From Eubacteriales bacterium (GTDB lineage Bacteria; Bacillota; Clostridia; Oscillospirales; CAG-272), in assembly GCA_045658965.1 (NCBI GenBank), contig JAZOVZ010000086.1, positions 43,175-107,174 of the forward strand: a stretch of 64,000 nt of DNA. The letters run 5' to 3'. The stretch's first letter is position 1, and every line of letters starts with the position of its first letter. Below are positions 7,403-47,666 of the stretch, piece after piece. The notes beneath the pieces were generated by a model that was given only the letters and a program-made list of their open reading frames with translations, had not been told where the DNA came from and ran no database searches. The position numbers and the translations under genes are program-made.

Positions 7403-8467
7403 ATGGCAATCAACCAATATGCAATGACTCCTGCGGAACAGACCATCACCAAATGCGCCCAGCTTTATGCAAAATACGGCTATCGCAGGTTTACTATGAA
7501 TAAATTCGAAGACTATGCCCTGTATGCCGACAACAAGAACTTTTTGGTGGATGGCAGACTTTTGACCTTTACCGACGGCTCCAAGCTCAAGGCTCTCAAG
7601 CCCGATATCACACTCTCTATCGTCAAGAGCCTGGCTGCAAATCCCCGACTCCCCCTCAAGGCGTTTTATAACGAAACCGTCTACCGCGTAAAAAAGGGAG
7701 AAAAGGAATTCAGCGAGCTGCATCAGATGGGACTTGAGCTGATCGGCGACGGCTCCATTTATGCCACAAGCGAGGTGCTTGCGCTGGCAAAAACTTCGCT
7801 GGACGCAATTGACGCGCAAAACATTCTTGATATTTCGCACATGGGTATTCTCATGCCGCTGATTGATCAAGCGTGCGAAAGCGGTGCTGATCGCGACCGG
7901 TTGATCTCAATGATCACGCAAAAGAACGCGGACGGTATTGCTGCTATGCTGGGTGCAAAACATCCGCTTACGGTACTGGTGAATTCCTACGCTCCTATCG
8001 GCAAAATGATCCCCGTACTGCAAGAGATGCTGCCCGATATGCCTGCGGTAAACGAGCTTGCACAGACCGCTGACGTGCTTGGTGCAATGGGACTTGATGC
8101 GGGCGTGTATCTTGATTTCTCGCTCATGCACGATTTCGGCTACTACAACGGCATTATTTTCAAGGGATACATCAAGGACGTTCCGGTCTCCGTGCTTTCG
8201 GGCGGTCGTTACGATCCCCTGCTCGACCGTTTTGGTATCAGCACAGCCGCTCTCGGATTTGCCATTTATCTTGACTATATCCGTTACAGCGAAACCAAGC
8301 ACGATACGGACGCTCTGCTTTTGTACACCGAACAGGACAAAGCGGCAGACGTTGCTCGTGCCGTTAAGACGCTGACCGAGCAAGGATATCTTGTGCTCGC
8401 AGCGCAAACGCAGCCCGAAAACCGCAGCTTTGTCAAAGTTTTCCACGTCAAGGAGGTGCTCGCATGA
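7403..8467 (+). CDS. hisZ: ATP phosphoribosyltransferase regulatory subunit HisZ
   Basis: It is a HisRS-like paralogue without an anticodon domain (354 aa). It sits directly upstream of, and ATGA-coupled to, a short-form hisG, and is the first gene of the his operon. Confidence 0.85.
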   Translation: MAINQYAMTPAEQTITKCAQLYAKYGYRRFTMNKFEDYALYADNKNFLVDGRLLTFTDGSKLKALKPDITLSIVKSLAANPRLPLKAFYNETVYRVKKGEKEFSELHQMGLELIGDGSIYATSEVLALAKTSLDAIDAQNILDISHMGILMPLIDQACESGADRDRLISMITQKNADGIAAMLGAKHPLTVLVNSYAPIGKMIPVLQEMLPDMPAVNELAQTADVLGAMGLDAGVYLDFSLMHDFGYYNGIIFKGYIKDVPVSVLSGGRYDPLLDRFGISTAALGFAIYLDYIRYSETKHDTDALLLYTEQDKAADVARAVKTLTEQGYLVLAAQTQPENRSFVKVFHVKEVLA

Positions 8468-9081
8468 TCAGAATTGCATTACCCAAGGGCAGACTTGGCG
8501 ATAAGGTGCTTGCGCAGTTTGAAGCTGCGGGGTACGCCTGCCCCGAGATCCATACGCCCTCCAGAAAGCTTGTTTTTTCCACAGACGAGGTCTCTTACTT
8601 CTTCGTCAAGCCCTCAGACGTGCCGATCTACGTAGAACGCGGCGTGGCTGACATTGGCGTTGCAGGCAGCGATATTCTCATGGAATACCAGCCCGACGTC
8701 TATTCCCTGCTCGATCTCGGCATAGGCAAATGCCGCATTTGCGTGGCAGCCAAGGCAGAATTTGAGGATGATTACGGTCGCCCCTTACGCGTGGCAACCA
8801 AGTTTACCCACGTTGCATCCCAATATTACAATTCGCTTGGCAGAACCATTGATATCATCAAGCTCAACGGCTCGATCGAGCTTGCCCCCATTCTCGGGCT
8901 CTCGGACGTGATCGTTGACATTGTGGAAACAGGCACGACGCTCAAAGAAAACGGGCTTGTGGTCAAGCAGGATATTGCCTCGGTCAGCGCAAGGCTGATT
9001 GCCAACAAGACCTCTTACAAATTTAACAGCGCGCAGATCTCCGAGCTGCAGCAAAAGCTTCAGGAGCAAAGAAAGGACTAA
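8464..9081 (+). CDS. hisG: ATP phosphoribosyltransferase, short form
   Basis: MIRIALPKGRL...VATKF...ETGTTLKENGL is a typical short HisG of 205 aa. Confidence 0.9.
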   Translation: MIRIALPKGRLGDKVLAQFEAAGYACPEIHTPSRKLVFSTDEVSYFFVKPSDVPIYVERGVADIGVAGSDILMEYQPDVYSLLDLGIGKCRICVAAKAEFEDDYGRPLRVATKFTHVASQYYNSLGRTIDIIKLNGSIELAPILGLSDVIVDIVETGTTLKENGLVVKQDIASVSARLIANKTSYKFNSAQISELQQKLQEQRKD

Positions 9082-9086
9082 ATCCC

Positions 9087-10364
9087 ATGATTCGCATATA
9101 TGATTTTAACGCCGTTTCGGACGAAGAAATTTTCAACCGTTCCGAGGACGCCTTCAACGTAGAGGACGCAGTTACCGAGATCATTGCAAGCGTCAAAGCG
9201 CAAAAGGACGCTGCCCTGCTTGCATACACCGAGAAATTTGACAAGGTCAAGCTGGATGCGCTGCAGGTTTCCGAGCAGGAGATCGCAGAGGCGTTTGCAG
9301 GCAGCGACCCCGAATTTATCCGCGTGATGCGCGACGCAGCTGCCAATATTGAAGCTTACCATAAAAACCAGGTAAGAACCGGATTTGAGATGCAAAAGGA
9401 CGGCGGCATTGTACTTGGTCAGAAGATCACTCCCTTAGCCAAGGTTGGCATTTACGTGCCCGGTGGCACGGCGGCTTACCCCTCCACCGTGCTCATGAAC
9501 AGCATTCCCGCCAAGCTTGCGGGCGTTGGTGAGATCGTCATGGTCACGCCCCCCATGCGCGATGGCAAGGTGAATCCCGCAATTCTTTGTGCGGCAAAGA
9601 TTGCAGGTGTGGATAAGATCTTCAAGATCGGCGGCGCACAGGCGGTTGCCGCATTGGCATACGGTACGGAGTCTGTACCCGCGGTAGACAAGATCGTCGG
9701 TCCCGGCAATGCGTTCGTGGCAGAAGCAAAGCGTCAGGTCTACGGCAAGGTCGCCATTGACATGATCGCAGGCCCCTCCGAGATTCTGGTACTGGCAGAT
9801 GGCAAGTCCAATCCCGCATTCGTGGCTGCCGACCTGCTCTCTCAGGCTGAGCACGATAAGATGGCAAGCGCAGTGCTTGTCACCGACAGCGAGCAGCTTG
9901 CTTATGCGGTACAATCCGAGGTGGAGCGTCAGCTTTCCATTCTGCCCCGTGAACAAATCGCGCGCCCCTCTATTGATAACTTCGGCAAGATCATCGTTTG
10001 CGCGGACTTGTGGCAAGGCATTGAGGTTGCCAACCGCATCGCTCCCGAGCACCTTGAGATTTGCGTGGACAATCCTTTTGATTATCTTGATAAGATCGAA
10101 AATGCGGGTTCGGTATTCCTTGGCAGGTACTGCCCCGAAGCCCTTGGCGATTATTATGCAGGCACAAACCACACGCTCCCCACAAGCGGCACGGCAAAAT
10201 TCTCCAGCCCCTTGTCGGTTGACGATTTTATCAAAAAGATCTCCTATACCTACTACGACCGCAACGCTATACAGAAAGCAGCGCCCGATATTGCTCTGTT
10301 TGCCCGCAAGGAGGGCCTTGAGGCACATGCAAGAAGCGCTGAGATCAGGTTGACAAATGAGTAA
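9087..10364 (+). CDS. hisD: Histidinol dehydrogenase
   Basis: 425 aa with HisD-typical blocks (GVYVPGGTAAYPSTVLM, SQAEHD, PEHLE, AGTNHTLPT). Confidence 0.92.
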   Translation: MIRIYDFNAVSDEEIFNRSEDAFNVEDAVTEIIASVKAQKDAALLAYTEKFDKVKLDALQVSEQEIAEAFAGSDPEFIRVMRDAAANIEAYHKNQVRTGFEMQKDGGIVLGQKITPLAKVGIYVPGGTAAYPSTVLMNSIPAKLAGVGEIVMVTPPMRDGKVNPAILCAAKIAGVDKIFKIGGAQAVAALAYGTESVPAVDKIVGPGNAFVAEAKRQVYGKVAIDMIAGPSEILVLADGKSNPAFVAADLLSQAEHDKMASAVLVTDSEQLAYAVQSEVERQLSILPREQIARPSIDNFGKIIVCADLWQGIEVANRIAPEHLEICVDNPFDYLDKIENAGSVFLGRYCPEALGDYYAGTNHTLPTSGTAKFSSPLSVDDFIKKISYTYYDRNAIQKAAPDIALFARKEGLEAHARSAEIRLTNE

Positions 10365-11412
10365 ATTTTTCTCCCGTAAGCCTGGTGAGCTCAAGGCGTA
10401 CGTACCGGGTGAACAACCCAGAAACGTACAGCAGCTCATCAAGCTTAATACAAACGAGTCTCCATTCCCGCCCGCTCCCGAGGTTATAGATGCAGTAGCG
10501 AGTGCGGCGCAAAAGGCAAACTTATACTGCGATCCCACCATGTTAAAGCTGCGCGAGGATCTTGCAAGTATTTACGGCTATACCCCCGATTATTTTACGC
10601 TGGGCAACGGCTCGGACGAGCTTTTGTCCTTTGCATTCCTTGCTTTTTGCAACAAGGAGATCGGTGCGGCGTATGCAGATATTACCTACGGCTTTTACAG
10701 CGTTCTTTCGCGTCTGTATGCGACCGATACTAAGATCGTACCGCTGGACGAGCAATATTGCATCAATCCCGATGACTATGCAGGTCTTGGCAGGACCTTG
10801 TTCATTGCCAACCCCAACGCTCCCACCGGCATTGCTCTGACGCGTGCGCAGATCGAGCGCATCCTGCAAGCCAACCCCGATAACGTGGTGGTCATAGACC
10901 AGGCGTACGTGGACTTCGGTGCAGAATGTGCAATCCCTCTGGTGGAAAAGTACGACAATCTGCTTGTGATCAACACCTTTTCCAAATCCCGCAGCTTTGC
11001 GGGCGGCAGAGTGGGCTTTGCAGTAGCCCAGCCTGCGCTGATTGCAGACCTGGAGACCATACGCAATTCCATCAATCCTTATAACGTAAACTCGCTCTCG
11101 CAGGCTGCCGCGCACGCCATTCTGCAGCATAACGACTATTACATGCAGAATTGCAGCATCGTTGCGCAGAACCGCATCTATCTGACAGAGCAGCTTGATG
11201 CGATGGGCTTTACCACGCTTCCCTCTTTGACCAATTTCGTATTTACCAAGCATCCCACCATTTCGGGTGAACAGCTGTATCTGCAGCTCAAGTCACGCGC
11301 AATTCTTGTACGTTACTTTGACGCGCCCCGCCTTAGCGACTTCTGCCGTATTACGGTAGGGACACGCGAGCAGGTCGATGCCCTGCTGGATGCCATCAGA
11401 TCCATCCTCTGA
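10357..11412 (+). CDS. hisC: Histidinol-phosphate aminotransferase
   Basis: It carries LNTNESPFPP and the class-II aminotransferase lysine block FSKSRSFAGGRVGF. It overlaps hisD by 8 nt. Confidence 0.9.
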   Translation: MSKFFSRKPGELKAYVPGEQPRNVQQLIKLNTNESPFPPAPEVIDAVASAAQKANLYCDPTMLKLREDLASIYGYTPDYFTLGNGSDELLSFAFLAFCNKEIGAAYADITYGFYSVLSRLYATDTKIVPLDEQYCINPDDYAGLGRTLFIANPNAPTGIALTRAQIERILQANPDNVVVIDQAYVDFGAECAIPLVEKYDNLLVINTFSKSRSFAGGRVGFAVAQPALIADLETIRNSINPYNVNSLSQAAAHAILQHNDYYMQNCSIVAQNRIYLTEQLDAMGFTTLPSLTNFVFTKHPTISGEQLYLQLKSRAILVRYFDAPRLSDFCRITVGTREQVDALLDAIRSIL

Positions 11413-11426
11413 AAGGAGAACTTTTC

Positions 11427-12014
11427 ATGAGAACCTGTAAAATTAACAGAAAAACCAATGAAACCGATATCGCACTTACCTTAAATCTTGACGGCACGGG
11501 CAGCTGTGAGATCACGACCGATTGCGGCTTTCTTACGCACATGCTGACCTTATTTGCAAGACACGGCGGTTTTGATCTGACCGTGAACTGCAAGGGTGAC
11601 AGTGAGGTGGACTTCCACCACACCGCCGAGGATATCGGCATTTGCCTTGGACAGGCGTTTGCAAAAGCGCTGGGTGATTGCAAGGGCATTTACAGATACG
11701 GTGATATCATTCTGCCCATGGACGAAGCACTCATACTTTGTGCGGTGGACGTTTCGGGTCGCCCCTATCTTGGCTACAGCGTGGAAATACCCGCTGCACG
11801 CGTGGGTGATTTTGACACCGAGCTTGCCGAGGAATTCTGGTTGGCGTTCGTGCGTCACGCAGGCATGACGCTGCACTTCAGAATGCTTGCGGGCAAAAAC
11901 TCGCACCACATCATTGAAGCAGAATTCAAGGCAGCTGCGCGCGTGCTTGCCAAGGCTTGCGCTGTTGACGCTGCGAAAGCAGACCAAATTCCTTCCACCA
12001 AGGGTGTATTATGA
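11427..12014 (+). CDS. hisB: Imidazoleglycerol-phosphate dehydratase
   Basis: RKTNETDI...DGTG, HHTAEDIGI and NSHHIIEAEFKA are the IGPD signature blocks. An RBS GAAAGGAG is present. Confidence 0.92.
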   Translation: MRTCKINRKTNETDIALTLNLDGTGSCEITTDCGFLTHMLTLFARHGGFDLTVNCKGDSEVDFHHTAEDIGICLGQAFAKALGDCKGIYRYGDIILPMDEALILCAVDVSGRPYLGYSVEIPAARVGDFDTELAEEFWLAFVRHAGMTLHFRMLAGKNSHHIIEAEFKAAARVLAKACAVDAAKADQIPSTKGVL

Positions 12015-12649
12015 TTACGATTATCGACTACGGCGTGGGAAACCTCTTTTCCCTTGCCTGCTCGTTTGAAAAAATAGGCGAGCAAGTATGCATCACGTCG
12101 GATGCGCAAACGATTCTGCATGCAGAGCGCATTGTATTGCCGGGCGTTGGTGCATTTGAAGATGCAGCGAATAAGCTTCGCCAAAGCGGGTTGGATACCA
12201 TTGTCAAGCAAAAAGCGGCTGAAGGCACGCCTATCTTGGGCATTTGCCTTGGTATGCAGATGCTGTTTGACAAAAGCTTTGAGTTTGGTGAACACGAGGG
12301 ACTTGGCTTGATTCCCGGTGCAGTTTGTCCGATCGCGCCCGTGATCGGCAACCTAAAGACCCCGCAGATGGGCTGGAATGCGCTCATTTTCCCCAAGGAT
12401 AAGCCCAAGCACCCCATTTTCAAGTACGTAAACGAGGGGGATCACGTATATTTCGTGCACTCCTATGCTGCCATGCAGTGTGATGCCTCGGTCAGTGCTC
12501 TGACCGAATACGGCGCGCTTTTGACCGCTGCCGCATGCCGCGGCAACGTATGCGGCACACAGTTCCACCCCGAAAAGAGCGGGCGCGTAGGGCTTGAGAT
12601 TCTGCGTGCATTCGCTGAATTTGATCCCAAATCCACCAAGGAGGTTTGA
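12011..12649 (+). CDS. hisH: Imidazole glycerol phosphate synthase, glutaminase subunit
   Basis: MITIIDYGVGNLFS, GICLGMQML and FHPEKS form a class-I amidotransferase triad. It is ATGA-coupled to hisB. Confidence 0.92.
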   Translation: MITIIDYGVGNLFSLACSFEKIGEQVCITSDAQTILHAERIVLPGVGAFEDAANKLRQSGLDTIVKQKAAEGTPILGICLGMQMLFDKSFEFGEHEGLGLIPGAVCPIAPVIGNLKTPQMGWNALIFPKDKPKHPIFKYVNEGDHVYFVHSYAAMQCDASVSALTEYGALLTAAACRGNVCGTQFHPEKSGRVGLEILRAFAEFDPKSTKEV

Positions 12650-12653
12650 TAAC

Positions 12654-13373
12654 ATGATACTTTTTCCTGCAATAGACCTCATTGGCGGTAAGGCGGTACG
12701 CCTGACCAAGGGCGATTACGCACAAATGACGGTTTATCATGATAATCCCGTTGCGGTTGCACAGTCGTTCGAGGCTGCGGGCGCAACGCATATTCACGTG
12801 GTTGACTTAGAAGGCGCGCGTGACGGCACGCCCCCCAATTTTGAAACGGTTTGTGCCATTATCCGAAATACTTCCCTCAAATTAGAAATAGGCGGCGGCA
12901 TCCGAGATATGCAGACCGTGGAAAAATACCTGAACGCAGGCGCGTATCGCGTCATTCTCGGCACGGCTGCATTGACCGATCCCACATTTTTGAAGCTGGC
13001 AGTTGCTACGTATGGCGACCAAATCGCGGTTGGAGCAGACCTGCGCGACGGCATGGTCGCCACGCACGGCTGGCTGCAGACCTCGCGTGTGTCGGGTGCG
13101 GAGTTTATCCGTTCCATGCAGGAAATCGGCGTGCGCGTAATCATTTGCACCGACATTTCCAAGGACGGCGTGATGGGCGGCACAAACCGTGCACTTTACC
13201 AGTCTCTGCAAGCAGAGTTTCCGCAGATGTGCTTCACCGCATCGGGCGGCATTTCGGATATTGAGACAGTCAAGGCACTTGCCGATATGCACATGTACGG
13301 TGCGATTTTAGGCAAAGCACTTTACACAGGTGCGATTGATCTTGTGGACGCGGTACGGGAGGTGGCAGAATGA
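12654..13373 (+). CDS. hisA: ProFAR isomerase HisA
   Basis: I moved the start to ATG-12654 (MILFPAIDLIGGKAVRL), which is preceded by AAGGAGG. The ORF-track start at 12594 overlaps hisH and lacks an RBS. Confidence 0.9.
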   Translation: MILFPAIDLIGGKAVRLTKGDYAQMTVYHDNPVAVAQSFEAAGATHIHVVDLEGARDGTPPNFETVCAIIRNTSLKLEIGGGIRDMQTVEKYLNAGAYRVILGTAALTDPTFLKLAVATYGDQIAVGADLRDGMVATHGWLQTSRVSGAEFIRSMQEIGVRVIICTDISKDGVMGGTNRALYQSLQAEFPQMCFTASGGISDIETVKALADMHMYGAILGKALYTGAIDLVDAVREVAE

Positions 13374-38354: not shown

Positions 38355-40298
38355 TTATTGCAGGTATTCCACGGTGCAGGACACCGAGGTTGAGTCGAAC
38401 GAGTTATGCCCGTTTTTGTTGAGTACGATGGCAATGCGGTCACCGCTTTGCACGTCGATATCGATCGTTTGCTCGTCAACTCGCCCTGTGGGCAAGAAGA
38501 CGTAACCGCCCTCTGCATCCAGAACGTGCTCTCCGTTCAAAAGCAACGCATACTTGACGCCGTCTCCCTCTTCGGAATTGACGCCTATGACAAAGCTGAC
38601 ACACACCTTGCCGCTCTTGGGTGCTTCAAACACCAACGCGCTGTCGTATTCGTCGGGGTGCATCGCGCCGCTCATGATCAGCGTAAAAGTTCCCTCGATC
38701 GCCCAGCGGTTGTTGGCGGTATCAAAGCTCAATTCACCAAACTCACCGCGCTTCTTGTCATAGCTCATATAGAACCAGCCGTCCTTACCCTGCTCTGTAC
38801 TAAAGCTGCTGGGGAAGGAATAGACCGCCAAGGGCTGATCGATCGTCTTGTCGGTCAGATCGTCTATAATGCGGAGCTTAACAAATTCACCCTTGGTTGC
38901 AAGTGCGTAGTAGCGCGTGATGAATACACCGGGCGTGCCCTTGCGCAAATGGTCGGTCAGAGAGATATCCATAGTCAGATCCGTCTTGGTCGTATCGATG
39001 ACCTCGGGGGCGTTGTCGCCCAACCACGTATCGATGAGCTGTTTCCATACCCACTCATATTCGCGGTATTTCTGATCGATCTCCCAGTTGGCAATACTCA
39101 CATAGGTACAGCCTCTGCCATACGCATCCATGCCCTGCTCCAGATAGTTTTCGGGAGTAGCTGCGACCTGAACGGGTCCGTCGATCTCCTGCGCAAGCAT
39201 GACGTGCGGCGGGAAGGTCGCGTGTGCATGGTCCATGGAAAACTCATGATCGGTCAGAGGACCGTCGTCGATCCACACCACGTCGGCATGCTCGGCAAGA
39301 TCGCCTGCAGCCAGCGTGCAACGCAGAAGAGATGCAGTATCGTAGATGCTGCCGAACTGCAGCGCGTACTTGGAATCGGGGCTGATCTGCTTTTGCACAA
39401 TTGCCAGCGAGTCGATCATTTCCTTGAGCTTTTGATGGCGGAACTGATACCAAAGCTGACCGAGATTATCCGATGCCGTGCAGGACGGAGGCTGAATCTG
39501 ATCAAAGGAGGCATATTCCGTACCCAAAACGCAGTTCAAAGCGTCAATATCGGTATATTTTTCCTGCAAGAACGCACGGAACTGTGCTTTTGCAGGATCG
39601 GAATAATCGTATTCCCCTGCGCACCAGTATTCACTCTCGGCAAACTGCGAGAATGCGGGGAGATAGAACAACACGTCCTCTGCATACAAAGCCTCGTACC
39701 GTTCAACAGCCGCCGCATAGAAATTCACAGCGGAGCTGACCGCGCTCTCGGAGCAAAACGAGATCATGGTACGCATACCGTCGATCGAGCCGCCCTGGCA
39801 AAGGTTGCCGTTCGGGTCATACTGCATCTGATCCAAGGGAATGATCTTATCGTCAGCACGGCGGGTCAGGTCGATCGAAATCGCCACCTTAAGCCCCTTA
39901 GTCTTGACAACGTAATTGATCATGTCGTCAAATGCGGCAAAATCGTACTCGCCTGCTTTGGTTGACTCCACGCGACTCCACGGAATGTGCACCTTGATCG
40001 CATTAAAGCCGGTCTTGGCAGCCTCGTCCACGATCTGCTCAAAAGCGTCTTGGGTCATGGGGGTAAAATTCCAGATGCGGTAAACGAAATAGCGTTCTCC
40101 AACGTTGCGCGGCTGATCCATGGGTATTACCTCCTGCGTAGTCTCTTCCCCGGTAGGTTGCCCGGTTTGCGTCTGCACGTTCTGCTCGGGCTGCGTTGTC
40201 TGCTCACTTCCCTGCTCGGGATGCGTTTGGCAGGCAACTGCACCGATCGTCAGTATGCAAAGTAAAAGGCAAAGTGCTCTTGCTCGAAAGTTTCTCAT
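38355..40298 (-). CDS. Secreted lipoprotein, clan GH-A (GH42-like) glycoside hydrolase candidate
   Basis: A lipobox signal peptide (ALCLLLCILTIGAVAC) and a Q/T/E-rich linker are followed by a TIM-barrel-like block, GFNAIKVHIPWSRVESTKAGEYDFAAFDDMINYVVKTKGLKV...FRAFLQEKYTDIDALNCVLGTEYASFDQI, which is reminiscent of GH42 N-terminal domains. I chose ATG-40298 (RBS AAGAGG); the ORF-track start at 40304 is a GTG. Confidence 0.5.
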   Translation of the reverse strand: MRNFRARALCLLLCILTIGAVACQTHPEQGSEQTTQPEQNVQTQTGQPTGEETTQEVIPMDQPRNVGERYFVYRIWNFTPMTQDAFEQIVDEAAKTGFNAIKVHIPWSRVESTKAGEYDFAAFDDMINYVVKTKGLKVAISIDLTRRADDKIIPLDQMQYDPNGNLCQGGSIDGMRTMISFCSESAVSSAVNFYAAAVERYEALYAEDVLFYLPAFSQFAESEYWCAGEYDYSDPAKAQFRAFLQEKYTDIDALNCVLGTEYASFDQIQPPSCTASDNLGQLWYQFRHQKLKEMIDSLAIVQKQISPDSKYALQFGSIYDTASLLRCTLAAGDLAEHADVVWIDDGPLTDHEFSMDHAHATFPPHVMLAQEIDGPVQVAATPENYLEQGMDAYGRGCTYVSIANWEIDQKYREYEWVWKQLIDTWLGDNAPEVIDTTKTDLTMDISLTDHLRKGTPGVFITRYYALATKGEFVKLRIIDDLTDKTIDQPLAVYSFPSSFSTEQGKDGWFYMSYDKKRGEFGELSFDTANNRWAIEGTFTLIMSGAMHPDEYDSALVFEAPKSGKVCVSFVIGVNSEEGDGVKYALLLNGEHVLDAEGGYVFLPTGRVDEQTIDIDVQSGDRIAIVLNKNGHNSFDSTSVSCTVEYLQ

Positions 40299-40313
40299 GC
40301 GCACCTCTTATTA

Positions 40314-41261
40314 TCAGTAAAAAGTTGCTACTTCTTGTGTGGGCTTGGTGGCAAATTCGGTCTTTTCCGCGTAAAGCACGGGACCGGGTCTGCCGTAAAG
40401 CTTATGCTTTTCGATCTTGATCTTGGCGGTCACGACAGTCCAATCACGGGTCTTGAAGTTGGTTGCCGTCGGGAAATAGCAGACGAGTGCGTTATATGCA
40501 ATATCGTCTGCGCAGCAGGTCATAACGTGTCTGCCGATGACAAGTCCGTTCTTGCCAAGCGCGCGGTCACGCGCCACGATGCCCTTGAAGCGTACCGTCT
40601 TGCCGTCGTACTTTTCGGTATCCTCGGCAAGATCGCGGTACCAAACGGCATAGTCCTCATCCTTGACGTCAATGACAGGTGCATCAATATCAAAGGGCAG
40701 CGGATCCTCGATCTCATCGTATTCCACGTGTCCGTCGGGATAATCGTAGGTGATGGACGCGCGCGTGCTTACGCTGCGCACAACGCGGTGGATCTCCTCT
40801 TTATCAATGACCTCGGGCGTGCGGTTGAGCACGATCATTTCGCAATCCTGCAGCTTATCCACCATAAGCTGACGCATGTTTGCGTTATAGGTCAAAAAGG
40901 TTTTTGCGTCCGCAAACATCATGTTCTGGAAAATAAACCAGTCTGCGGGCAATGCGGCATACAGCTTGGAGAGCAGCCACATGCCATTATATTCGATGAT
41001 CACGCGGTCGATCTTGTGCTTTTTGTAAAGTAGGGTCAGATAGTCGCGCGTCAGCATTTCGGGATCGTCAAGCAGCTCAAGGTAAACGTTCTTGCCCCAG
41101 AAGCGGTCAAGATCCAGCTCCTCAATGCCCTCTTCGCACATGATCAGCAGCGTTTTTTCACCCGAATTGAAGCGCTGATCCTCCATGGACTCCTGAATGA
41201 TGTGCGTTTTGCCCCCTTCCAGGAAGCCCGTGAAGACGTATACGGGAATTTTGTTAGCCAT
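40314..41261 (-). CDS. Divergent G3E (CobW-like) P-loop protein fused to a CCADD-motif C-terminal domain
   Basis: The N-terminus IPVYVFTGFLEGGKTHII is a Walker A in CobW context. However, the CxCC motif is absent (LIMCEEGIEE replaces ENEFGE..GCICC) and NKxD is degenerate (VLNRTPE). The C-terminus VRFKGIVARD...VIGRHVMTCCADDIAY...DWTVVTAKI resembles the C-terminal domain of DUF1980/TIGR03943-type proteins; this is from memory, not from a search. Confidence 0.55.
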   Translation of the reverse strand: MANKIPVYVFTGFLEGGKTHIIQESMEDQRFNSGEKTLLIMCEEGIEELDLDRFWGKNVYLELLDDPEMLTRDYLTLLYKKHKIDRVIIEYNGMWLLSKLYAALPADWFIFQNMMFADAKTFLTYNANMRQLMVDKLQDCEMIVLNRTPEVIDKEEIHRVVRSVSTRASITYDYPDGHVEYDEIEDPLPFDIDAPVIDVKDEDYAVWYRDLAEDTEKYDGKTVRFKGIVARDRALGKNGLVIGRHVMTCCADDIAYNALVCYFPTATNFKTRDWTVVTAKIKIEKHKLYGRPGPVLYAEKTEFATKPTQEVATFY

Positions 41262-41392
41262 AGTAATCTCCTTGCCGCCTATGGCGGCTAAAATAGTTTT
41301 GAAATCTTATCTGAAAATGGGCTGTGCCCCATTTTCAAGTAAGATTTATGCGTGAACACCAGCCTAAACGAAAGGAGGTGTGAAAATTCACG
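41262..41392 (-). promoter_or_regulatory. Conserved structured intercistronic element, copy 1 of 2
   Basis: This 131-nt spacer runs from the TAG stop to the ATG. With 44712..44843 it shares, read on the minus strand, the blocks TAGCGTGAA, TTCACGC, TAAATCT, AAAATGGG-6nt-CCCATTTT, AAAACT and GGAGATTA. It contains nested hairpins. Confidence 0.6.
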
Positions 41393-42628
41393 CTATCCCT
41401 CCGACTTATGCAATGCTACACCCAGCAGCTCACCGATGGCATCAATGTTCAGATTCGAGCCGATAACGCACAGTCTGCCGATGATGCCTGCAGCACCCGT
41501 ACGAATGTCGGGCTCACCGGGAACGTAGTCAAAGTGGATCCAGCTGCCGTCGTCCCCTGCTACGATGCCCTTTGCACGCAGTACGATGCCGAATTTGCCC
41601 TCATCGCAAAGCTCGTCAAGCTGCTCAGCAAGCAGTTTTGCATTGAACTTAGCCGTGGTTTCTGCGCCTGCGCTGATGAATACCTCGTCTGCATGGTGGT
41701 GATGGTGATGACCGCCGCAGCCGCAGCTGCAGGTCTCGTCATGCTCGTGATGATGGTGATGTTCGTGCTCATGCTCATGCTCATGCTCGTGCTCATGATC
41801 ATGGCAGCCGCACTCGCAGTGCTCATCATGATCGTGATGATGGTGATGTTCGTGCTCGTGCTCATGGTCATGGCAACCGCACTCGCAATGGTCGTCATGG
41901 TCATGATGATGGTGATGCTCATGCTCATGCTCATGATCATGCTCATGGCAACCGCACTCGCAGTGCTCGTCATGATCGTGATCATGGTGATGGTGGTGCG
42001 CATGCTCCAATCTTTCAAGCTCAGCCTGTAAAGTGTCCTTGCGCTCCATGGCTTCCAGCAGCTGCTCTGCGCTCAGAATATCCCAATCGGTCGTGACGAT
42101 GGTTGCGGTAGTATTGTGCTCACGCAGCATTGCAACGCACTCGGAAATCTTCTTTTCGCTTGCAGTACCGGTATGAGAAAGCACGATACAGCCTGCGTTG
42201 GCAACCTGATCGTTGAAAAACTCGCCGAAGTTTTTCATGTACATCTTGCACTTGCCTGCATCCACAACGGTAGTGAATGCATTAAGCTCTGCGCCCTCTA
42301 CGTGCAGATTCTGCACCGCTCTGATCACGTCGGACAGCTTGCCGACACCCGAGGGCTCGATCAGAATTCTGTCGGGTGCGTACTGCTCCAGCACCTGCGT
42401 CAGCGCCTTACCAAAGTCGCCAACCAAGGAGCAGCAAATGCAGCCCGAATTCATTTCGTTGATCTGAATGCCTGCCTCTGCAAGAAAGCCGCCATCAATG
42501 CCGATCTCACCGAATTCGTTTTCGATCAGCACCAGCTTCTCTCCCTTGTAAGCCTGCTCGATCATCTTCTTGATCAGCGTGGTCTTACCCGCGCCCAAAA
42601 ATCCGGAAAAAATATCTATCTTAGTCAT
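41393..42628 (-). CDS. COG0523/CobW-family G3E GTPase (putative metallochaperone) with giant His/Cys-rich insert
   Basis: Walker A FSGFLGAGKTTLI, ENEFGEIGID, the canonical metal motif NSGCICCSL, and IEPSGVGK. A 104-aa His/Cys array is followed by a CobW_C-like C-terminus (FGIVLRAKGIV...WIHFDYVPGE). The start is 6 nt after the upstream stop. Confidence 0.85.
   Translation of the reverse strand: MTKIDIFSGFLGAGKTTLIKKMIEQAYKGEKLVLIENEFGEIGIDGGFLAEAGIQINEMNSGCICCSLVGDFGKALTQVLEQYAPDRILIEPSGVGKLSDVIRAVQNLHVEGAELNAFTTVVDAGKCKMYMKNFGEFFNDQVANAGCIVLSHTGTASEKKISECVAMLREHNTTATIVTTDWDILSAEQLLEAMERKDTLQAELERLEHAHHHHHDHDHDEHCECGCHEHDHEHEHEHHHHHDHDDHCECGCHDHEHEHEHHHHHDHDEHCECGCHDHEHEHEHEHEHEHHHHHEHDETCSCGCGGHHHHHHADEVFISAGAETTAKFNAKLLAEQLDELCDEGKFGIVLRAKGIVAGDDGSWIHFDYVPGEPDIRTGAAGIIGRLCVIGSNLNIDAIGELLGVALHKSEG
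41693..42004 (-). repeat. In-frame tandem repeat encoding the His/Cys array
   Basis: ATGGCArCCGCACTCGCArTG recurs at 41801, 41870 and 41945 (69- and 75-bp periods). It encodes 3 units HHHHHDHD(E/D)HCECGCH(D/E)H(E/D)HEHEH plus a 4th degenerate unit (ETCSCGCGGHHHHHH). Confidence 0.9.
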
Positions 42629-42634
42629 GTTATC

Positions 42635-44323
42635 TTAATCCTTTTTCTTAGTGCCTCTGTATACGTAGTTGAGTCTGCCCAGAGGTGCGGCATCACCCTT
42701 ATCGTAAAAGTCCTCAATGCTTGTCAGCTCTTCGGTGCTGTCCGCGACCTTGAACCAAACGGTAAAGTCGTCCTTGTCAAGACCAATGACCGCGCGAGGT
42801 GCGATCACCAGCAGCATATTGCCCTGGCAGCGGTACACGATATCACCGAAATCAGCGGCACGCAAGCCATCCACAATGACACCAACCGTACTGGTGCGGT
42901 CATCCACGGGCTTGTTGTTGAGCACGTACTGATATTCCTTACCGCCATCGGTATTGAGGTAAATTCTCAGCCAGGTACCCGTTCCGTCATAAGGCTTGAC
43001 GTCTCCCTTGGTCACGATGCCGAAATAGATGAAATCGTCGTCGTGGCTGACGGTCACGCCCGTGATGGCATTGCGCTGGGTGTGATTTTCATATACGGTG
43101 CCATATCCCTTTGCTTCTCTTGCAAAATCACCGTCCGAGAAGTTGTGGTACTCTGCCCAGATCTCCTCTGCCTCGTCCTGCTCGGAATCGTTGTTGTAAT
43201 CCACGGGCACAAGCTCGGCAAAGCTGTCGTATTCATCCACGCCCTTATACTTGCGAACGTAATCGACAAGCTGCATAAAGTAGTTATCAAAGTAGCCGCC
43301 GCGCATCATTTCAAGGTCACGGCTATATTCGTAGTTGGCACAGTCCACGAACATGATGGGTCTGTGCGGAAAGCCCTTCCATCTGCCTGCGATCCATTCA
43401 TTCCAGCCCGTGACAAGCACGATGGGCGGATCGGTTTCGATGGCGCGCTCAAACTGCTCGGCAAAATTATAGCCGTGGAGATACGCATCGGGATCGGGGT
43501 CGTTGTGCATATCGTGGAAACCGCGACCGTTGTTATCGGTCTCGCCATACATCACAGAGTCGCCAAAGCGCAGCTGCGGATGCTGGGCAACGGATACGTT
43601 GATGACCTCGTCCTCACCCTTGAGATTGGCAAACACGCGCTGCGGACGGGTAAAGTCCATCCAAGGCCAGCCGCCAAGCTTATCGGGCTCATTGGGCCAC
43701 TGCGACATTTTAATGTTAAAGAACTCTCTGCATTCGGCAGAGCACTCCTCCTCTATCGCGATGATAACAGGCTTGCCCTCAAAGTAGAACCACGTATCGG
43801 GGCAATATTTTGCCGCATAGATCTTGTCGTAGATCTCCTGCACGGTCTTGCCCGAGTGGGTATTGGTATAGAACATCACCTTGGGGATCTTCCAGCCGTC
43901 CTTGGCGTATTCGTCCAGCACGCGCATGACGAGCTTGACGTTATGCTCGTAAATGCAGGCATTGGTGGTATCAAAGAACAAAAAGTCAATGTCTGCCTGG
44001 ATCAGCAGCTTCATGTGACGGCGCACGACCCACTCGTCATCCGAGTAGTAGTAGCCGTAGAAGGGTTCACCCCAATGGTGATAGGTGCCGATCTTGCCCC
44101 AGTATTCCGCATCCACGTGCTCTCCCGCATCGGGGTGCTCTGCCGTGATCTTGGAAATATCGTAAGGCTTATGTCTGCCGTGCTCACCCAACCACAGGAA
44201 ATAGAACATACCCACAAGGCGGCCTTCTCTGCGCGCGGGGGCGTTTTCGCGGTCTGCGGTCTTTCTGCCCAGCGCGTCGGTTGCCATCAAGGGGCCGTTG
44301 GCGTAATTCTTATACTGTTCCAT
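42635..44323 (-). CDS. Cytoplasmic hypothetical protein, possible GH99/WbsX-like glycoside-hydrolase fold
   Basis: 562 aa with no signal peptide. Blocks FYFLWLGEHG, TYHHWGEPFYGYYYSDDEWVVRRHMKLLIQADIDFLFFDTTN and VTGWNEWIAGRW resemble TIM-barrel GH99-like/WbsX-like families. This is a weak, by-eye call. The C-terminal ~150 aa look beta-rich. Confidence 0.35.
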   Translation of the reverse strand: MEQYKNYANGPLMATDALGRKTADRENAPARREGRLVGMFYFLWLGEHGRHKPYDISKITAEHPDAGEHVDAEYWGKIGTYHHWGEPFYGYYYSDDEWVVRRHMKLLIQADIDFLFFDTTNACIYEHNVKLVMRVLDEYAKDGWKIPKVMFYTNTHSGKTVQEIYDKIYAAKYCPDTWFYFEGKPVIIAIEEECSAECREFFNIKMSQWPNEPDKLGGWPWMDFTRPQRVFANLKGEDEVINVSVAQHPQLRFGDSVMYGETDNNGRGFHDMHNDPDPDAYLHGYNFAEQFERAIETDPPIVLVTGWNEWIAGRWKGFPHRPIMFVDCANYEYSRDLEMMRGGYFDNYFMQLVDYVRKYKGVDEYDSFAELVPVDYNNDSEQDEAEEIWAEYHNFSDGDFAREAKGYGTVYENHTQRNAITGVTVSHDDDFIYFGIVTKGDVKPYDGTGTWLRIYLNTDGGKEYQYVLNNKPVDDRTSTVGVIVDGLRAADFGDIVYRCQGNMLLVIAPRAVIGLDKDDFTVWFKVADSTEELTSIEDFYDKGDAAPLGRLNYVYRGTKKKD

Positions 44324-44354
44324 GATAACACTCCTTTACCTGTATTTGTTGTAA

Positions 44355-44711
44355 TTATTCAACGTAAGAGGTTACGATGATATCTGCGCCCGTACCAAGC
44401 AGGTTAGCAATGACCACGTCACCCTGCTTGACGGTAACGGGGGCTATGCAAGCGTTGATCTCCTTCATGCAATCAAACAGCAGCTCCTTGGGGACTGCCT
44501 TATTGGACTTGACGGCAACCACTTCACCGCTCTCGGTCATAACAGTGGTCGTCAGCGTTCTCGTGGGTGCGGTGCATTCCGCAACGGCATAATCCGTGCC
44601 GCGCTTGCAAGCGTTGCCCTTAACGCTCAGCACCTTTTTGTCCTCCAACTCCACGGTCAGCGTGCAGCCGCGGGGACAAATGATACAAGTCATTTCTCTT
44701 TTATTTTCCAT
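44355..44711 (-). CDS. DUF1667 domain protein (third member of the glpA-like trio)
   Basis: MTCIICPRGCTLTVE...VKGNACKRGTDYAVAE is the CxxCPxGC...C cysteine pattern typical of DUF1667. I chose ATG-44711, which follows GGAGATTATT; the ORF-track ATG-44723 lacks spacing to an SD. Confidence 0.75.
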   Translation of the reverse strand: MENKREMTCIICPRGCTLTVELEDKKVLSVKGNACKRGTDYAVAECTAPTRTLTTTVMTESGEVVAVKSNKAVPKELLFDCMKEINACIAPVTVKQGDVVIANLLGTGADIIVTSYVE

Positions 44712-44843
44712 AATAATCTCCATTCCACAAAGTTTTAAAATTTCACCGTGGAGCTTTGCTCCAAAAATGGGTTGGGTCCCATTTTTAGGTGAGATTTAAG
44801 CGTGAATCGTAAAGTTATCAGATGGGTTGCGTGCGCTTTCACG
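44712..44843 (-). promoter_or_regulatory. Conserved structured intercistronic element, copy 2 of 2
   Basis: This 132-nt spacer runs from the TAG stop (44844-44846) to ATG-44711. It has the same block order as 41262..41392. The invariant stem GCGTGAA:TTCACGC encloses 31 nt here, versus 30 nt in copy 1. Confidence 0.6.
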
Positions 44844-46088
44844 CTATTCCTCCAATCCAATGGTTATAGTGCCCTCTGCCAGCTCGGCAAGCACCTGGGC
44901 GGTCAGCTTGACCGTCTCCATCTCACCGGGGGCGAGCTTGATCTTCTTTTTATTCGAAATGACGCGATCACCGCACTTGACCACGACTCGCTTGTCGCGG
45001 AACACGTCGGCAACGCGGAAATAAACGGTGGTGTCCTGTGCGCTGGTGATCTTCTGCGGTACGGTATAGCGTACGCCGCCTACGGGCTGCAAGGTAATAT
45101 CCACGCGCTCGCTTTGCTTGTTAGCCAGATAATCGGCAGCAGCGCAGCCGGCGATCTCTGCTTCCTCGGATACGTAGTCCACAAGGTCGTGCACGTGCAG
45201 CACGTTACCGCATGCAAACACACCGGGAATAGAGGTCTGTCTGCTCTGGTCGGTCACGGCGCCGCCCGTAATTCTGTCCATGGTAATGCCTGCGCCCTTG
45301 GTCAGCTCGTTTTCGGGCAGCAGACCGCAGGAAAGCAGCAGCGTGTCGCACGCGATATACTGCTCGGTCTCCTTGATGGGATTGCGTCTCTCATCCACCT
45401 TGGCAATGGTCACGCCCGTGACTCTGTCCTTACCGTGGATCTGTACGACGGTGTGCGACAGCATCAGCGGAATGCCGAAATCATTCAGACACTGCTCGAT
45501 GTTACGCGCCAGACCGCCCGAATAAGGCATCAGCTCGCAAACTGCCTTGACCTTTGCACCCTCCAGCGTCATGCGGCGTGCCATGATCAGACCGATATCG
45601 CCCGAGCCGAGGATAACGACCTCTTTACCGGGCATATAGCCCTTGATATTAACGTATTTCTGTGCAGTACCCGCGGTATAGATACCCGAGGGACGTGCAC
45701 CTGCGATATTCAGCGCACCCTTGGGACGCTCGCGGCAACCCATGGCGAGAATGATCGCCTCTGCTTGAATATGCATAATACCGTCGGTGGGATTGACTGC
45801 GGTGATCACCTTATCCTCGGTGATGCCGGTCACCATAGTGCCCACCTTATAAGGAATGCCCAGCTCCTTGACCTGCTCGGCATAGCGAGCGGCATACTCG
45901 GGGCCTGTCAGCTCCTCACCGAATTTGTGAAGACCGAAGCCGTTATGAATGCACTGGCGCAGAATACCGCCCAGGTGCGCTTCACGCTCCAGGATCAGCA
46001 GATCGGTTACGCCTGCCTTATATGCGGCAACTGCCGCGCTCATGCCTGCGGGGCCGCCGCCGACGATTACAAGAGAAACCTTACGCAT
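44844..46088 (-). CDS. FAD/NAD(P)-dependent pyridine nucleotide-disulfide-type oxidoreductase
   Basis: I set the start at ATG-46088 (MRKVSLVIVGGGPAGMSAAVAAYKAG). A second dinucleotide motif is VVILGSGDIGLIMA. It overlaps the upstream stop by 8 nt (ATGCGTAA). Confidence 0.8.
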   Translation of the reverse strand: MRKVSLVIVGGGPAGMSAAVAAYKAGVTDLLILEREAHLGGILRQCIHNGFGLHKFGEELTGPEYAARYAEQVKELGIPYKVGTMVTGITEDKVITAVNPTDGIMHIQAEAIILAMGCRERPKGALNIAGARPSGIYTAGTAQKYVNIKGYMPGKEVVILGSGDIGLIMARRMTLEGAKVKAVCELMPYSGGLARNIEQCLNDFGIPLMLSHTVVQIHGKDRVTGVTIAKVDERRNPIKETEQYIACDTLLLSCGLLPENELTKGAGITMDRITGGAVTDQSRQTSIPGVFACGNVLHVHDLVDYVSEEAEIAGCAAADYLANKQSERVDITLQPVGGVRYTVPQKITSAQDTTVYFRVADVFRDKRVVVKCGDRVISNKKKIKLAPGEMETVKLTAQVLAELAEGTITIGLEE

Positions 46089-47529
46089 CGTTCTTATCCC
46101 CCTTGGTTCTTCCGTAGTTAATAATAGATGCACCGCCCGACTTGGTGACCTGCTCGTAAGGAATGCCCATCTCTCTGGACAGAATCTCTACGATGATAGA
46201 GGAGCAGAAGCCTCCCTGGCATCTGCCCATGCCGCTTCTCGTGCGGCGCTTGACACCGTCCACGTCGCGTGCACCGGGATTGGTACGGATGGCTGCCACG
46301 ATCTCGCCCTCGCTGACGCCCTCGCAACGGCAGACCATATTGCCGTAGGCAGGGTTTTCTTTGATGATCTCGTTCTTTTGCTCGTCGGTCATCTTACTGA
46401 ATTTGATCGCGCCCTTGGTGCGTACGGGCGACCAATCTGCCTTTTTCTCAAGAGCCAAGCCCTCGAGAGCAAGCAGCTCTGCGCAATACTCTGCAAGTGC
46501 GGGTGCGCTGGTCAGACCGGGGCTTTCAATGCCGCCGAAGGTGATAAAGCCGGGAGCGGATGCATGGATGATAAAGTCACCCGTGCTGCCAACGGCACGC
46601 AAGCCGGTAAAGCTTGTAATGACAGCGTTAAAAGGAATGTTCTGCACGTATCTTGCACTCTGTGCGCGGATAGATGCAGTACCTGCTGCCGTGGTATCAA
46701 GGTCTTCCTTATCGGTCAGTTCCTCTGCGGTAGGACCGAGCATAACGTTGCCGCCCGTGGTGGCGGTCACAAGGATGCCCTTACCCTTGGGGGTGGGGGT
46801 GGAAAACAGAGTAAAGTTGGTCAAGGAAGGCGTGAACGCCTTGTCCAGCACCATATATTCACCGCGTCTGGGGTGAACGGTAAAGGAATCGTCACCGACC
46901 ATAGCGGCGATCTTATCGGAATACAGACCTGCGCAGTTGACAACGTACTTGGCACGTACGGTCTGCTCTCCTGCATACAGCACGTAAGCGTCGTCCTCAC
47001 GCTCGATTCTGTCAACCTCAAAATTGCGGATAAACTCGGCACCGTTGTCCATTGCATGTCCAAGACCTGCATCGCAAAGCCCGAAGGGGCTGACGATGGC
47101 ACCCGTGGGTGCGTAGAGTGCGCAGGTGACCTCCTCGGTCACGTGGGGCTCGAGTGCTACCACGCCCTCGCGGTCAAGCAGCTGCAGATCCTTCACGCCG
47201 TTTTTAACACCGCGCTCGTAAAGGTCGCCGAGGGTTGCCTTGTCCTCATCGGAATATCCAAGCACCAGCGAGCCGTTACGCACGTATTTGACACCGAGGT
47301 CGCGGCAAACCTGCTCCATCATTTCAGAGCCGCGCACGTTAAATCTTGCCTTTAAGGTGCCGGGCTTTGCATCAAAGCCTGCGTGCACAATGGCACTGTT
47401 GGCACGGGATGCGCCCGTGCAGACGTCGTTTGCGCGATCAACAACGCAAACGTTCAGCTTATAAGCGGACAGCTCGCGCGCACAAAGTGCACCGACCACA
47501 CCCGCTCCGACGATACATACGTCAAACAT
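46081..47529 (-). CDS. FAD-dependent glycerol-3-phosphate-dehydrogenase-like oxidoreductase with BFD-like [2Fe-2S] domain
   Basis: I set the start at ATG-47529 (MFDVCIVGAGVVGALCARELS), preceded by GGAGG. It has a DAO-type fold and a C-terminal VCRCEGVSEGEIV...MGRCQGGFC, which is the BFD-like Cys pattern. This is the GlpA/GlpD-like class. Confidence 0.75.
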   Translation of the reverse strand: MFDVCIVGAGVVGALCARELSAYKLNVCVVDRANDVCTGASRANSAIVHAGFDAKPGTLKARFNVRGSEMMEQVCRDLGVKYVRNGSLVLGYSDEDKATLGDLYERGVKNGVKDLQLLDREGVVALEPHVTEEVTCALYAPTGAIVSPFGLCDAGLGHAMDNGAEFIRNFEVDRIEREDDAYVLYAGEQTVRAKYVVNCAGLYSDKIAAMVGDDSFTVHPRRGEYMVLDKAFTPSLTNFTLFSTPTPKGKGILVTATTGGNVMLGPTAEELTDKEDLDTTAAGTASIRAQSARYVQNIPFNAVITSFTGLRAVGSTGDFIIHASAPGFITFGGIESPGLTSAPALAEYCAELLALEGLALEKKADWSPVRTKGAIKFSKMTDEQKNEIIKENPAYGNMVCRCEGVSEGEIVAAIRTNPGARDVDGVKRRTRSGMGRCQGGFCSSIIVEILSREMGIPYEQVTKSGGASIINYGRTKGDKNDA

Positions 47530-47637
47530 AAAAATCCTCCGTTTTCCCATAGTATGGCATTATATTATTATTCAAAATATATTATATCACCGATCCCCTT
47601 TCCCGTCAAGAAAATTCCGCGTTTTTATTGACAAAAT

Positions 47638-47666
47638 TTCATGCGTATGATACACTAAAATCAAAC
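47638..47666 (+). promoter_or_regulatory. SigA-type promoter (extended -10) of the beta-propeller GH gene
   Basis: TTGACA (47638-47643), a 17-nt spacer, then TGA-TACACT (47658-47666). Confidence 0.65.

Follow-up and report, generated by a model that had tools for sequence, protein, structure and literature searches.

Two structured spacers in one operon

The window analysed here is a 64,000-nucleotide (nt) stretch of contig JAZOVZ010000086.1 from a Eubacteriales bacterium (assembly GCA_045658965.1). Its minus strand carries an operon in the order promoter, DAO/GlpA-like, Pyr_redox_2, DUF1667, GH99-like, CobW, CobW/DUF1980_C, and GH42-like, two junctions of which are filled by copies of a hairpin-forming sequence, hereafter called the element. 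Copy 2 (132 nt; 44712–44843) makes up the whole gap between the TAG stop of the oxidoreductase gene and the ATG of the DUF1667 gene (junction J2), and copy 1 (131 nt; 41262–41392) makes up the whole gap between the CobW stop and the CobW/DUF1980_C start (junction J1). J2 sits 3.4 kb upstream of J1 in the same operon. The other junction of the glpA-like gene trio that contains J2 is an 8-nt overlap (ATGCGTAA, 46088–46081), as had been correctly noted in a preliminary description of this DNA. The positions of all features are given in Table 1.

All of the sequence features listed for the two copies in the preliminary description were present, on the minus strand. Copy 2 contains AAATCTCACC and GGTGAAATTT (with one C·A mismatch), AAAAATGGG-acccaa-CCCATTTTT, GGAGC-aaa-GCTCC, and GCGTGaaagcgCACGC, and copy 1 contains AAATCTTA and TAAGATTT, AAAATGGGGcacaGCCCATTTT, and GCCGCC-ata-GGCGGC. 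The view that these are two copies of one structured element was borne out by three lines of evidence. The pattern AAAATGGG-N(3–12)-CCCATTTT occurs exactly twice in the 64 kb, compared with 0.00 expected occurrences; blastn within the window matched the two copies to each other and to nothing else; and, relative to shuffled sequences, copy 1 had a fold z-score of −7.4, with values of −2.7 to −4.1 obtained for copy 2. The similarity between the copies reaches left into GGAGGnATAG, in which GGAGGn is the pre-existing target, also present at empty sites.

Filled and empty junctions in related genomes

Homologues of the DUF1667 and CobW/DUF1980_C proteins led to the same operon in relatives, and its gene order was conserved throughout. 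J2 was empty in all of the 20+ syntenic contigs examined (L015–L025, L031–L036, L046–L049, L052–L056, and L066), reading GGAGGATTAAagtcATGG, GGAGGATTGAccATGG, or GGAGGACTGAtcATGG with a gap of 2–4 nt, and was filled only in the window and in L001 (RGIG275, a metagenome-assembled genome [MAG] from cattle caecum), with a 132-nt spacer. At the empty J2 sites, which read GGAGGATTAAagtcATG or GGAGGACTGAtcATG, the downstream gene has its Shine-Dalgarno (SD) sequence within the last codons of the upstream gene. J1 was empty, with 1–4 nt (GGAGGGATAAtcATGG or similar), in many lineages (L015–L023, L036–L061, and the lineages of the homologues P0161, P0148, P0147, P0123, and P0126), and was filled in L003, L004, L062–L065, L066, and the window. 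In the P0123 and P0126 lineages, the protein downstream of the empty J1 is 99% identical to that of the window, with about 5–7% nucleotide divergence. A filled J1 and an empty J2 occur together on one contig (L066) and in one assembly (L004 and L034), two contigs from one sample (L062 and L025) point the same way, and both junctions are filled in the window.

Because syntenic relatives, some with a 99% identical flanking protein, have junctions of only 1–4 nt, the element is an insertion; its presence is polymorphic, and its two sites are independent. An assembly artefact is excluded because independent assemblies from several sources (NCBI MAGs, ENA assemblies, and a Logan assembly) contain the element. 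The insert replaces the original spacer of 1–4 nt, so that the empty GGAGGGATAAtcATGG becomes GGAGGGATAR–(131–145 nt)–ATGG when filled. The proposal that the spacer at J2 is an insertion that splits the glpA-like trio was thus strongly supported by the comparison that the preliminary description itself had named, namely that of the same junction in relatives.

Since the closest relatives lack it, the element is a young, non-essential, lineage-restricted insertion in an uncultured lineage of gut Clostridia, not a conserved regulatory switch, and such an absence would not be expected if it served as a dedicated sensor for its neighbouring genes. In line with the preliminary description, the element could instead be a cis-regulatory RNA (attenuator, riboswitch, or thermosensor) that controls the downstream gene via exclusive folds. 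A connection with metals would be conceivable, since each of the downstream proteins (a CobW-type GTPase and the CxxC-rich DUF1667) is a putative metal binder. However, the nearest relatives run the same operon with junctions of 2–4 nt, and the element is missing from the majority of orthologous operons, even where the flanking protein is 99% identical. We consider a cis-regulatory role unlikely.

Structure of the element and its deletion derivatives

Nine distinct copies of the element, all closely related in sequence, were aligned. A 145-nt form containing both of the hairpins P2b and P3 was found in L062–L066 and L003, with the layout P1, P2 (central hairpin and P2b), the linker CAAAACT, P3, AAGGAGATTACT, and ATG. 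P1 consists of the base helix CGTGAA/TTCACG and a variable interior stem; P2 of the outer helix AAATCTyrCC/GGTrAGATTT around the central hairpin AAAATGGG..CCCATTTT and P2b (GGAGC..GCTCC); and P3 of GCCGCC..GGCGGC. The full-length copies had a minimum free energy of about −57 kcal/mol (z-scores of −5.9 to −6.8). In copy 1 and L004, 14 nt of P2b are deleted, and in copy 2 and L001, 14 nt containing P3 are deleted. The ancestral form is approximately 145 nt long, and copies 1 and 2 each derive from it by a separate deletion of 14 nt. The preliminary description had seen in copy 2 an extra hairpin that takes the place of another in copy 1, with the overall length preserved. This did not hold, as the 145-nt form has both hairpins, and the similar lengths of 131 and 132 nt are a coincidence because the copies each lost a different 14-nt hairpin. 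The element evolves by loop substitutions and losses of whole hairpins.

Across the nine copies, the loops vary while the stems are kept. The base helix of P1, (G)CGTGAA with TTCACG(C), which was missed in the preliminary description, closes the 5' third of the element with 6–7 base pairs and is invariant in nine of nine copies, as are the GGAGATT that holds the new SD sequence and the block CACGCnTAAATCT. All six base pairs of this helix were unchanged in the nine sequences, and the paired fraction was 53% in the P1 interior, 95% in the P2 outer helix, 96% in both the central hairpin and P2b, and 100% in P3 (in the seven copies that have it). The claim that the helices carry compensatory changes was weakly supported. 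Two pairs in well-kept helices did change on both sides, from U-A to C-G in the outer helix and from G-C to A-U via G·U at the foot of the central hairpin, and paired cells amounted to 86% versus 31–47% in slid controls. However, of the five two-sided changes seen overall in these nine closely related sequences, three fall in the P1 interior, where pairing is poor; 31 of 500 shuffles scored as high in covariation, which is marginal; and one variant seems to be hairpin-templated. Specifically, two adjacent changes (CACAC to CACCG) perfect the P1 palindrome in L062 (L062:35–179, compared with L064:955–1099 and L063:1215–1359). Quasipalindrome (hairpin-templated) mutagenesis yields 'compensatory' changes without selection, and the change in L062 looks like the signature of such a mutation, mimicking compensation in the absence of selection. 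Within this one species (L062–L064), the flanking gene differs at 2–3 of 948 positions and the element at 3–7 of 145.

The maintenance of stems while loops vary and the two covarying pairs speak for a cis-regulatory RNA; however, hairpin losses differ among the copies, L003 and L004 show uncompensated damage to the central hairpin, and no aptamer-like conserved single-stranded positions were seen. The two mutually exclusive folds that had been proposed by analogy with attenuators found no support in the family. The local GCGTG/CACGC hairpin, which lies within the diverged P1 interior of copy 2, is confined to the copy-2 lineage, and the loops are not conserved. A terminator scan reported nothing in either copy; the central hairpin failed it, and the U's beside this hairpin pair with the 5' A-tract. 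Rfam 15 gave no match in the whole window at the gathering threshold and none overlapping either copy at E ≤ 10 (40800–45300), which also counts against a regulatory RNA. The full-length L066 copy, searched at E ≤ 10, matched nothing but one small RNA, a chance match that spans the final 6 nt of the spacer and then coding sequence downstream. ARAGORN found nothing.

The invariance of the P1 base and the block CACGCnTAAATCT, even though the P1 interior varies, could also reflect action at the level of DNA, with the inverted repeats CGTGAA..TTCACG and AAATCTyrCC..GGTrAGATTT serving as a protein-binding operator or a recombination site. The central hairpin is indeed symmetrical and similar on both strands, as indicated by partial covariance-model matches on the reverse strand. 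Nevertheless, we regard this explanation as highly improbable: no known operator architecture was recognised, the arms are 31–50 nt apart, which is unusual for dimeric operators, the element lies deep inside the operon, far from the promoter, and no candidate binding-protein gene travels with it. A scan for internal or antisense promoters gave only weak 9-of-12 matches overlapping the start codon.

Translation features and proposed mechanism

The insertion parts the downstream start codon from its former SD sequence (the GGAGG in the tail of the upstream gene), and in all copies the element brings a replacement (AAGGAG or TGGAG), spaced 6 nt from the ATG. The former GGAGG is left 6 nt ahead of the invariant GTG of a possible short open reading frame (ORF), which starts 1 nt after the upstream stop; between the end of this ORF and the downstream ATG there are 85 nt in the J1 copies and 23 nt in copy 2. 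In all seven J1 copies, this candidate ORF has 18 codons and its TGA directly precedes the central hairpin; its peptide is not conserved, and an 18-codon frame is open by chance about 40% of the time. A CCUCCUU stretch (anti-SD) within the J1 short ORF is predicted to pair with the old SD sequence, with a decoy AAGGAG in P1, or with the new SD sequence. In partition-function folds with a ribosome placed on the upstream stop, the predicted unpaired probability of the new SD sequence was 0.00–0.03 in five of the seven J1 copies, and with the short ORF occupied, it was 0.33–0.93 across all seven. In favour of a cis-regulatory RNA, the invariant-GTG short ORF ends at an A-tract/hairpin/U-tract structure, and the SD-masked and unmasked folds are close in energy.

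We interpret the element, with moderate confidence, as a lineage-restricted non-coding intercistronic insertion that is probably co-transcribed with the operon and tolerated thanks to its own SD sequence. Under this interpretation, a 145-nt form would have replaced the 1–4 nt J1 junction between translationally coupled genes in some members of the clade, and a diverged copy would later have come to occupy the similar junction J2. The element would be transcribed within the operon mRNA, and its tolerance would stem from the correctly spaced new SD sequence, which would serve the downstream gene. At J1, ribosomes leaving the upstream gene may translate the short ORF through the CCUCCUU stretch, unmask the downstream start, and so restore coupling. 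Local processing or stability of the mRNA is probably also influenced by the stable hairpins, as has been reported for ERIC and similar repeats. Overall, the insertion is most likely neutral in effect, or mildly modulatory, with no dedicated ligand or attenuation switch. As for the copying route, either recombination at microhomology or a targeted mechanism could have been involved.

Several points weigh against this interpretation. Transcription, short-ORF translation, and anti-SD pairing are predictions only, and the predicted accessibility of the SD sequence changes strongly with the length of the flanks that are folded. In copy 2 and L001, the CCUCC stretch is missing and the ORF is shifted in frame (35 codons in copy 2), and the coupling model therefore cannot be general. 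Furthermore, the element diverges between species by 0.07–0.20, compared with 0.35–0.53 at the fourfold sites of the adjacent gene, that is, two to six times more slowly, and copy 2 differs from L001 at 4 of 132 positions, whereas the flanking genes differ by 8.5–10.8% and the flanks diverge immediately outside the element. Such low divergence fits poorly with a neutral passenger and could mean functional constraint or recent horizontal spread; that the element is better conserved than synonymous sites is also an argument for a cis-regulatory RNA. A control intergenic spacer of 158 nt located downstream diverges by 0.09–0.19 in the same lineages and is as conserved as the element, so the slow divergence does not single the element out.

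Copy number, exchange, and mobility

In the sequences covered, the element occurs in one or two copies per genome, always in this operon. A 20-base pattern that is invariant in the nine copies was found at one site in each of three genomes when 185,579 species genomes were scanned, a search that yielded these three true loci and one chance match. A covariance model (R1) run over the 500 kb made up of the window and 42 related loci matched J1 and J2 only, and motif searches with mismatches together with blastn (word sizes 7 and 9) revealed no further or partial copies in the window or related DNA. The 10 pattern matches in JGI metagenomes were all chance matches, IMG/VR gave 0, and plasmids and phages gave no match. 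No terminal inverted repeats were found: the ends CGTGAATTTT... and ...AAGGAGATTACT are not complementary, and the inverted repeats are all internal. P1 and P3 are subterminal hairpins that are unrelated in sequence, and copy 2 is without P3. No direct repeat flanks the insert as a target-site duplication, and no transposase, integrase, or reverse transcriptase was detected among the 48 window ORFs scanned with Pfam. An integron attC site was rejected for want of core sites, a retron or group II intron remnant for want of a reverse transcriptase and an Rfam match, and bypass in the style of T4 gene 60 for want of an in-frame landing codon.

J1 and J2 share the same target architecture (GGAGGn, a stop, a few nt, and ATGG), and the filling of two non-homologous sites with this architecture would be explained by a non-autonomous mobile element, similar in style to miniature inverted-repeat transposable elements (MITEs), ERIC, REPIN, or IS200/IS605 derivatives, that targets GGAGGnnTRA..ATGG junctions and is moved in trans. 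The presence of the element is patchy and does not follow flanking-gene distances; copy 1 of the window has its nearest counterpart in L004, from which it differs at 9 of 131 positions and with which it shares a deletion, although the gene flanking copy 1 is closest to those of L066 and the empty L036; and copy 2 is only 3% diverged from L001, with flanks that part from each other just outside it. We nevertheless consider such mobility unlikely. Both copies lie in one operon, terminal inverted repeats and a target-site duplication are absent, the 1–4 nt spacer is replaced rather than retained, the window ORFs include no enzyme of the kinds scanned for, and nothing similar was found in virus, plasmid, and phage collections. 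In addition, the flanks show mosaic ancestry with evident recombination among lineages, which can explain the patchiness. Low divergence extends no further than about 13 to 35 nt beyond the element, and binned mismatch counts in the flanks of J1 revealed no clear L004-like recombination tract in the window.

Allelic recombination and one microhomology-mediated copying event within the operon are enough to explain the patchiness, the resemblance of copy 1 to L004, and the shared architecture. A targeted insertion mechanism stays a minority view, based on the patchiness, the similarity between copy 1 and L004, and the identical target architecture. In its furthest form, the element would be a self-contained 'junction cassette' that lands precisely in SD/stop/start junctions and keeps both neighbours expressed, carrying a short ORF near the stop, an anti-SD, and a new SD sequence, and so would be a mobile device for rebuilding translational coupling; it may arrive through targeting or a homing-like process, or be copied via RNA or recombination. 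This would explain why two unrelated junctions of the same architecture are filled, why the copies are more alike than their flanks, and why the low-divergence tract ends near the element, but we think it quite unlikely. If the element did actively target junctions, it would represent a new style of mobile DNA; two sites in one operon do not require that reading.

With regard to the origin of copy 2, its P2 resembles the J1 copies of the L003/L066 type. Because one half of its P1 interior shows no relationship to the J1 copies, copy 2 is not a recent duplicate of copy 1 of the window. We also considered a J1 copy that included the first four codons of the downstream gene (ATGGAAAATAAA resembles ATGGCAAATAAA), and set this aside as a bare possibility, given that the N-termini of DUF1667 proteins are naturally variable (MANTR, MANIR, MENIR, and, in P0027, also MENKR). 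The DUF1667 homologue P0027 (80% identity, 119 amino acids) has the unusual N-terminus MENKREM, as in the J2-filled window and L001, and its lineage might be a third, more distant J2-filled lineage. No exact-sequence match for the DUF1667 protein of the window is on record, either in its 118- or its 122-amino-acid version.

Other features of the operon and window

Junction spacing across the operon is generally fluid among relatives. The GH99-like gene of the window (42635–44323) encodes 562 amino acids and leaves a gap of 6 nt before CobW, and its counterparts in L036 (7085–8794) and L066 (6990–8705) encode 569–571 amino acids and overlap the CobW start by 14 nt. The CobW gene (41393–42628, minus strand) contains a long tandem coding array of His/Cys-rich units (HHHHHDHDEHCECGCHDHEHEHE...), the length of which varies by strain (protein of 356–420 amino acids), and assemblies break within these repeats, as at the end of L034 and the start of L004. 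A second sigma-70-like promoter (TTGACA-17-TACACT, 47628–47656, plus strand), strong like the operon promoter, is arranged back-to-back with it, between the operon and a divergent Big-like gene. Four sigma-70/ECF-type sigma factor genes are present in the window, all on the minus strand, each followed by a large gene with no Pfam match or of the BspA-type LRR_5 kind, and this module also adjoins the host operon in relatives. A compact histidine biosynthesis cluster (hisZ-like, hisG, hisD, hisC, hisB, hisH, and hisA/F) at 7403–13373 on the plus strand is ordinary and unrelated to the spacers.

Table 1. Positions of the two element copies, their host operon, and further features in the window
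Feature	Position	Strand	Remarks
Host operon	38355–47609	-	Same order in relatives
Sigma-70-like promoter TTGACG-17-TATAAT, upstream TG	47609–47581	-	Good match; heads the operon
Pyr_redox_2 FAD oxidoreductase gene	44844–46088	-	Upstream of copy 2; TAG stop
Old SD GGAGG and TAG stop	44844–44853	-	Last oxidoreductase codons; target sequence, not element
Copy 2, variant without hairpin P3	44712–44843	-	Covariance model 122 bits, E 6e-25
P1 of copy 2	44801–44843	-	Base helix CGTGAA (44843–44838) with TTCACG (44806–44801)
P2 of copy 2	44738–44797	-	Outer helix AAATCTCACC (44797–44788) with GGTGAAATTT (44747–44738)
Central hairpin of copy 2	44786–44763	-	Within P2
Side hairpin P2b of copy 2, GGAGCaaaGCTCC	44762–44750	-	Within P2
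Candidate short ORF of copy 2 (GTG, 35 codons, TAA)	44735–44842	-	1-nt frame shift relative to the J1 ORF
New SD GGAG of copy 2	44718–44721	-	6 nt before the DUF1667 ATG
DUF1667 gene	44355–44711	-	Downstream of copy 2; ATG 44711–44709
His-rich CobW GTPase gene	41393–42628	-	Upstream of copy 1
Copy 1, variant without hairpin P2b	41262–41392	-	Covariance model 145 bits, E 5e-30
Candidate short ORF of copy 1 (GTG, 18 codons, TGA)	41335–41391	-	TGA just 5' of the central hairpin; contains CCTCCTT
P2 of copy 1	41302–41347	-	Outer helix AAATCTTA (41347–41340) with TAAGATTT (41309–41302); 14-nt P2b deleted
Central hairpin of copy 1	41336–41313	-	Inside P2 outer helix
P3 of copy 1, GCCGCC-ata-GGCGGC	41288–41274	-	Followed by AAGGAG
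New SD AAGGAG of copy 1	41273–41268	-	6 nt before the ATG at 41261
CobW/DUF1980_C gene	40314–41261	-	Downstream of copy 1; ATG at 41261
Sigma factor/large-gene pairs	35340–35924/33013–35343, 29475–30050/28024–29478, 4932–5528/3412–4935, 57089–57679/56457–57092	-	Module repeats in the window

Comparison with known systems

A full-text search of the literature for a described element of this type returned general reviews only. ERIC sequences are imperfect palindromes of about 127 bp that lie in transcribed intergenic regions, often just after an operon gene, are present or absent at orthologous sites of related genomes, and can alter mRNA cleavage and stability; they are dispersed in tens to hundreds of copies, with terminal inverted repeats and a flanking TA duplication (PMC3184786). 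The element is similarly hairpin-forming, intergenic within an operon, and polymorphic at orthologous sites, but it differs from ERIC in having one or two copies in one operon, its own SD sequence, no such ends, no sequence similarity, and a host in a different phylum. MIRU sequences occupy intercistronic positions in operons, are missing at the homologous site in a related species, and contain small ORFs; they measure 40–100 bp, are often in tandem, number about 40–50 per genome, and have ORF ends that overlap both flanking genes (PMC3184786). The element shares with MIRU its intercistronic location, its absence in relatives, and a small ORF placed relative to the stop and start of its neighbours, whereas its short ORF overlaps neither flanking gene, and it occupies just two sites, with no tandem arrangement.

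MITEs, REPINs, and IS200/IS605-derived palindromes (Correia, RUP, and BOX, among others) are small non-coding hairpin insertions in intergenic DNA, as is the element, and they are co-transcribed and sometimes polymorphic among strains (PMC3184786, PMC3049150). Unlike these, the element has no terminal inverted repeats, target-site duplication, or multi-copy spread, and the window ORFs include no cognate transposase. In terms of mechanism, translational coupling through the unmasking of a sequestered SD sequence, in which a long-range anti-SD is opened by upstream ribosomes, has been reviewed (PMC12548453), and an example with an intergenic short ORF has been reported (PMC8092293). The predicted anti-SD in the short ORF of the J1 copies, fed by the SD sequence of the upstream gene, would resemble such systems in mechanism only, and copy 2, which has no anti-SD, is unlike them.

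The filled and empty alleles in near-identical backgrounds make this a clean natural case of an operon that tolerates a structured insert of 130–145 nt between coupled genes, and a convenient natural test of the effects that short ORFs and structure between cistrons have on coupling, mRNA processing, and subunit stoichiometry. They also call for caution in genome scans, in which two hairpin spacers that resemble each other and show 'compensatory' differences can have arisen by deletion from a young insertion and need not represent a conserved riboswitch. Compared with the systems above, the element forms a new family in a broad and well-known class, that of small intergenic insertions with hairpins, and its unusual traits are its position exactly at a stop/start junction and its own ribosome-binding site.

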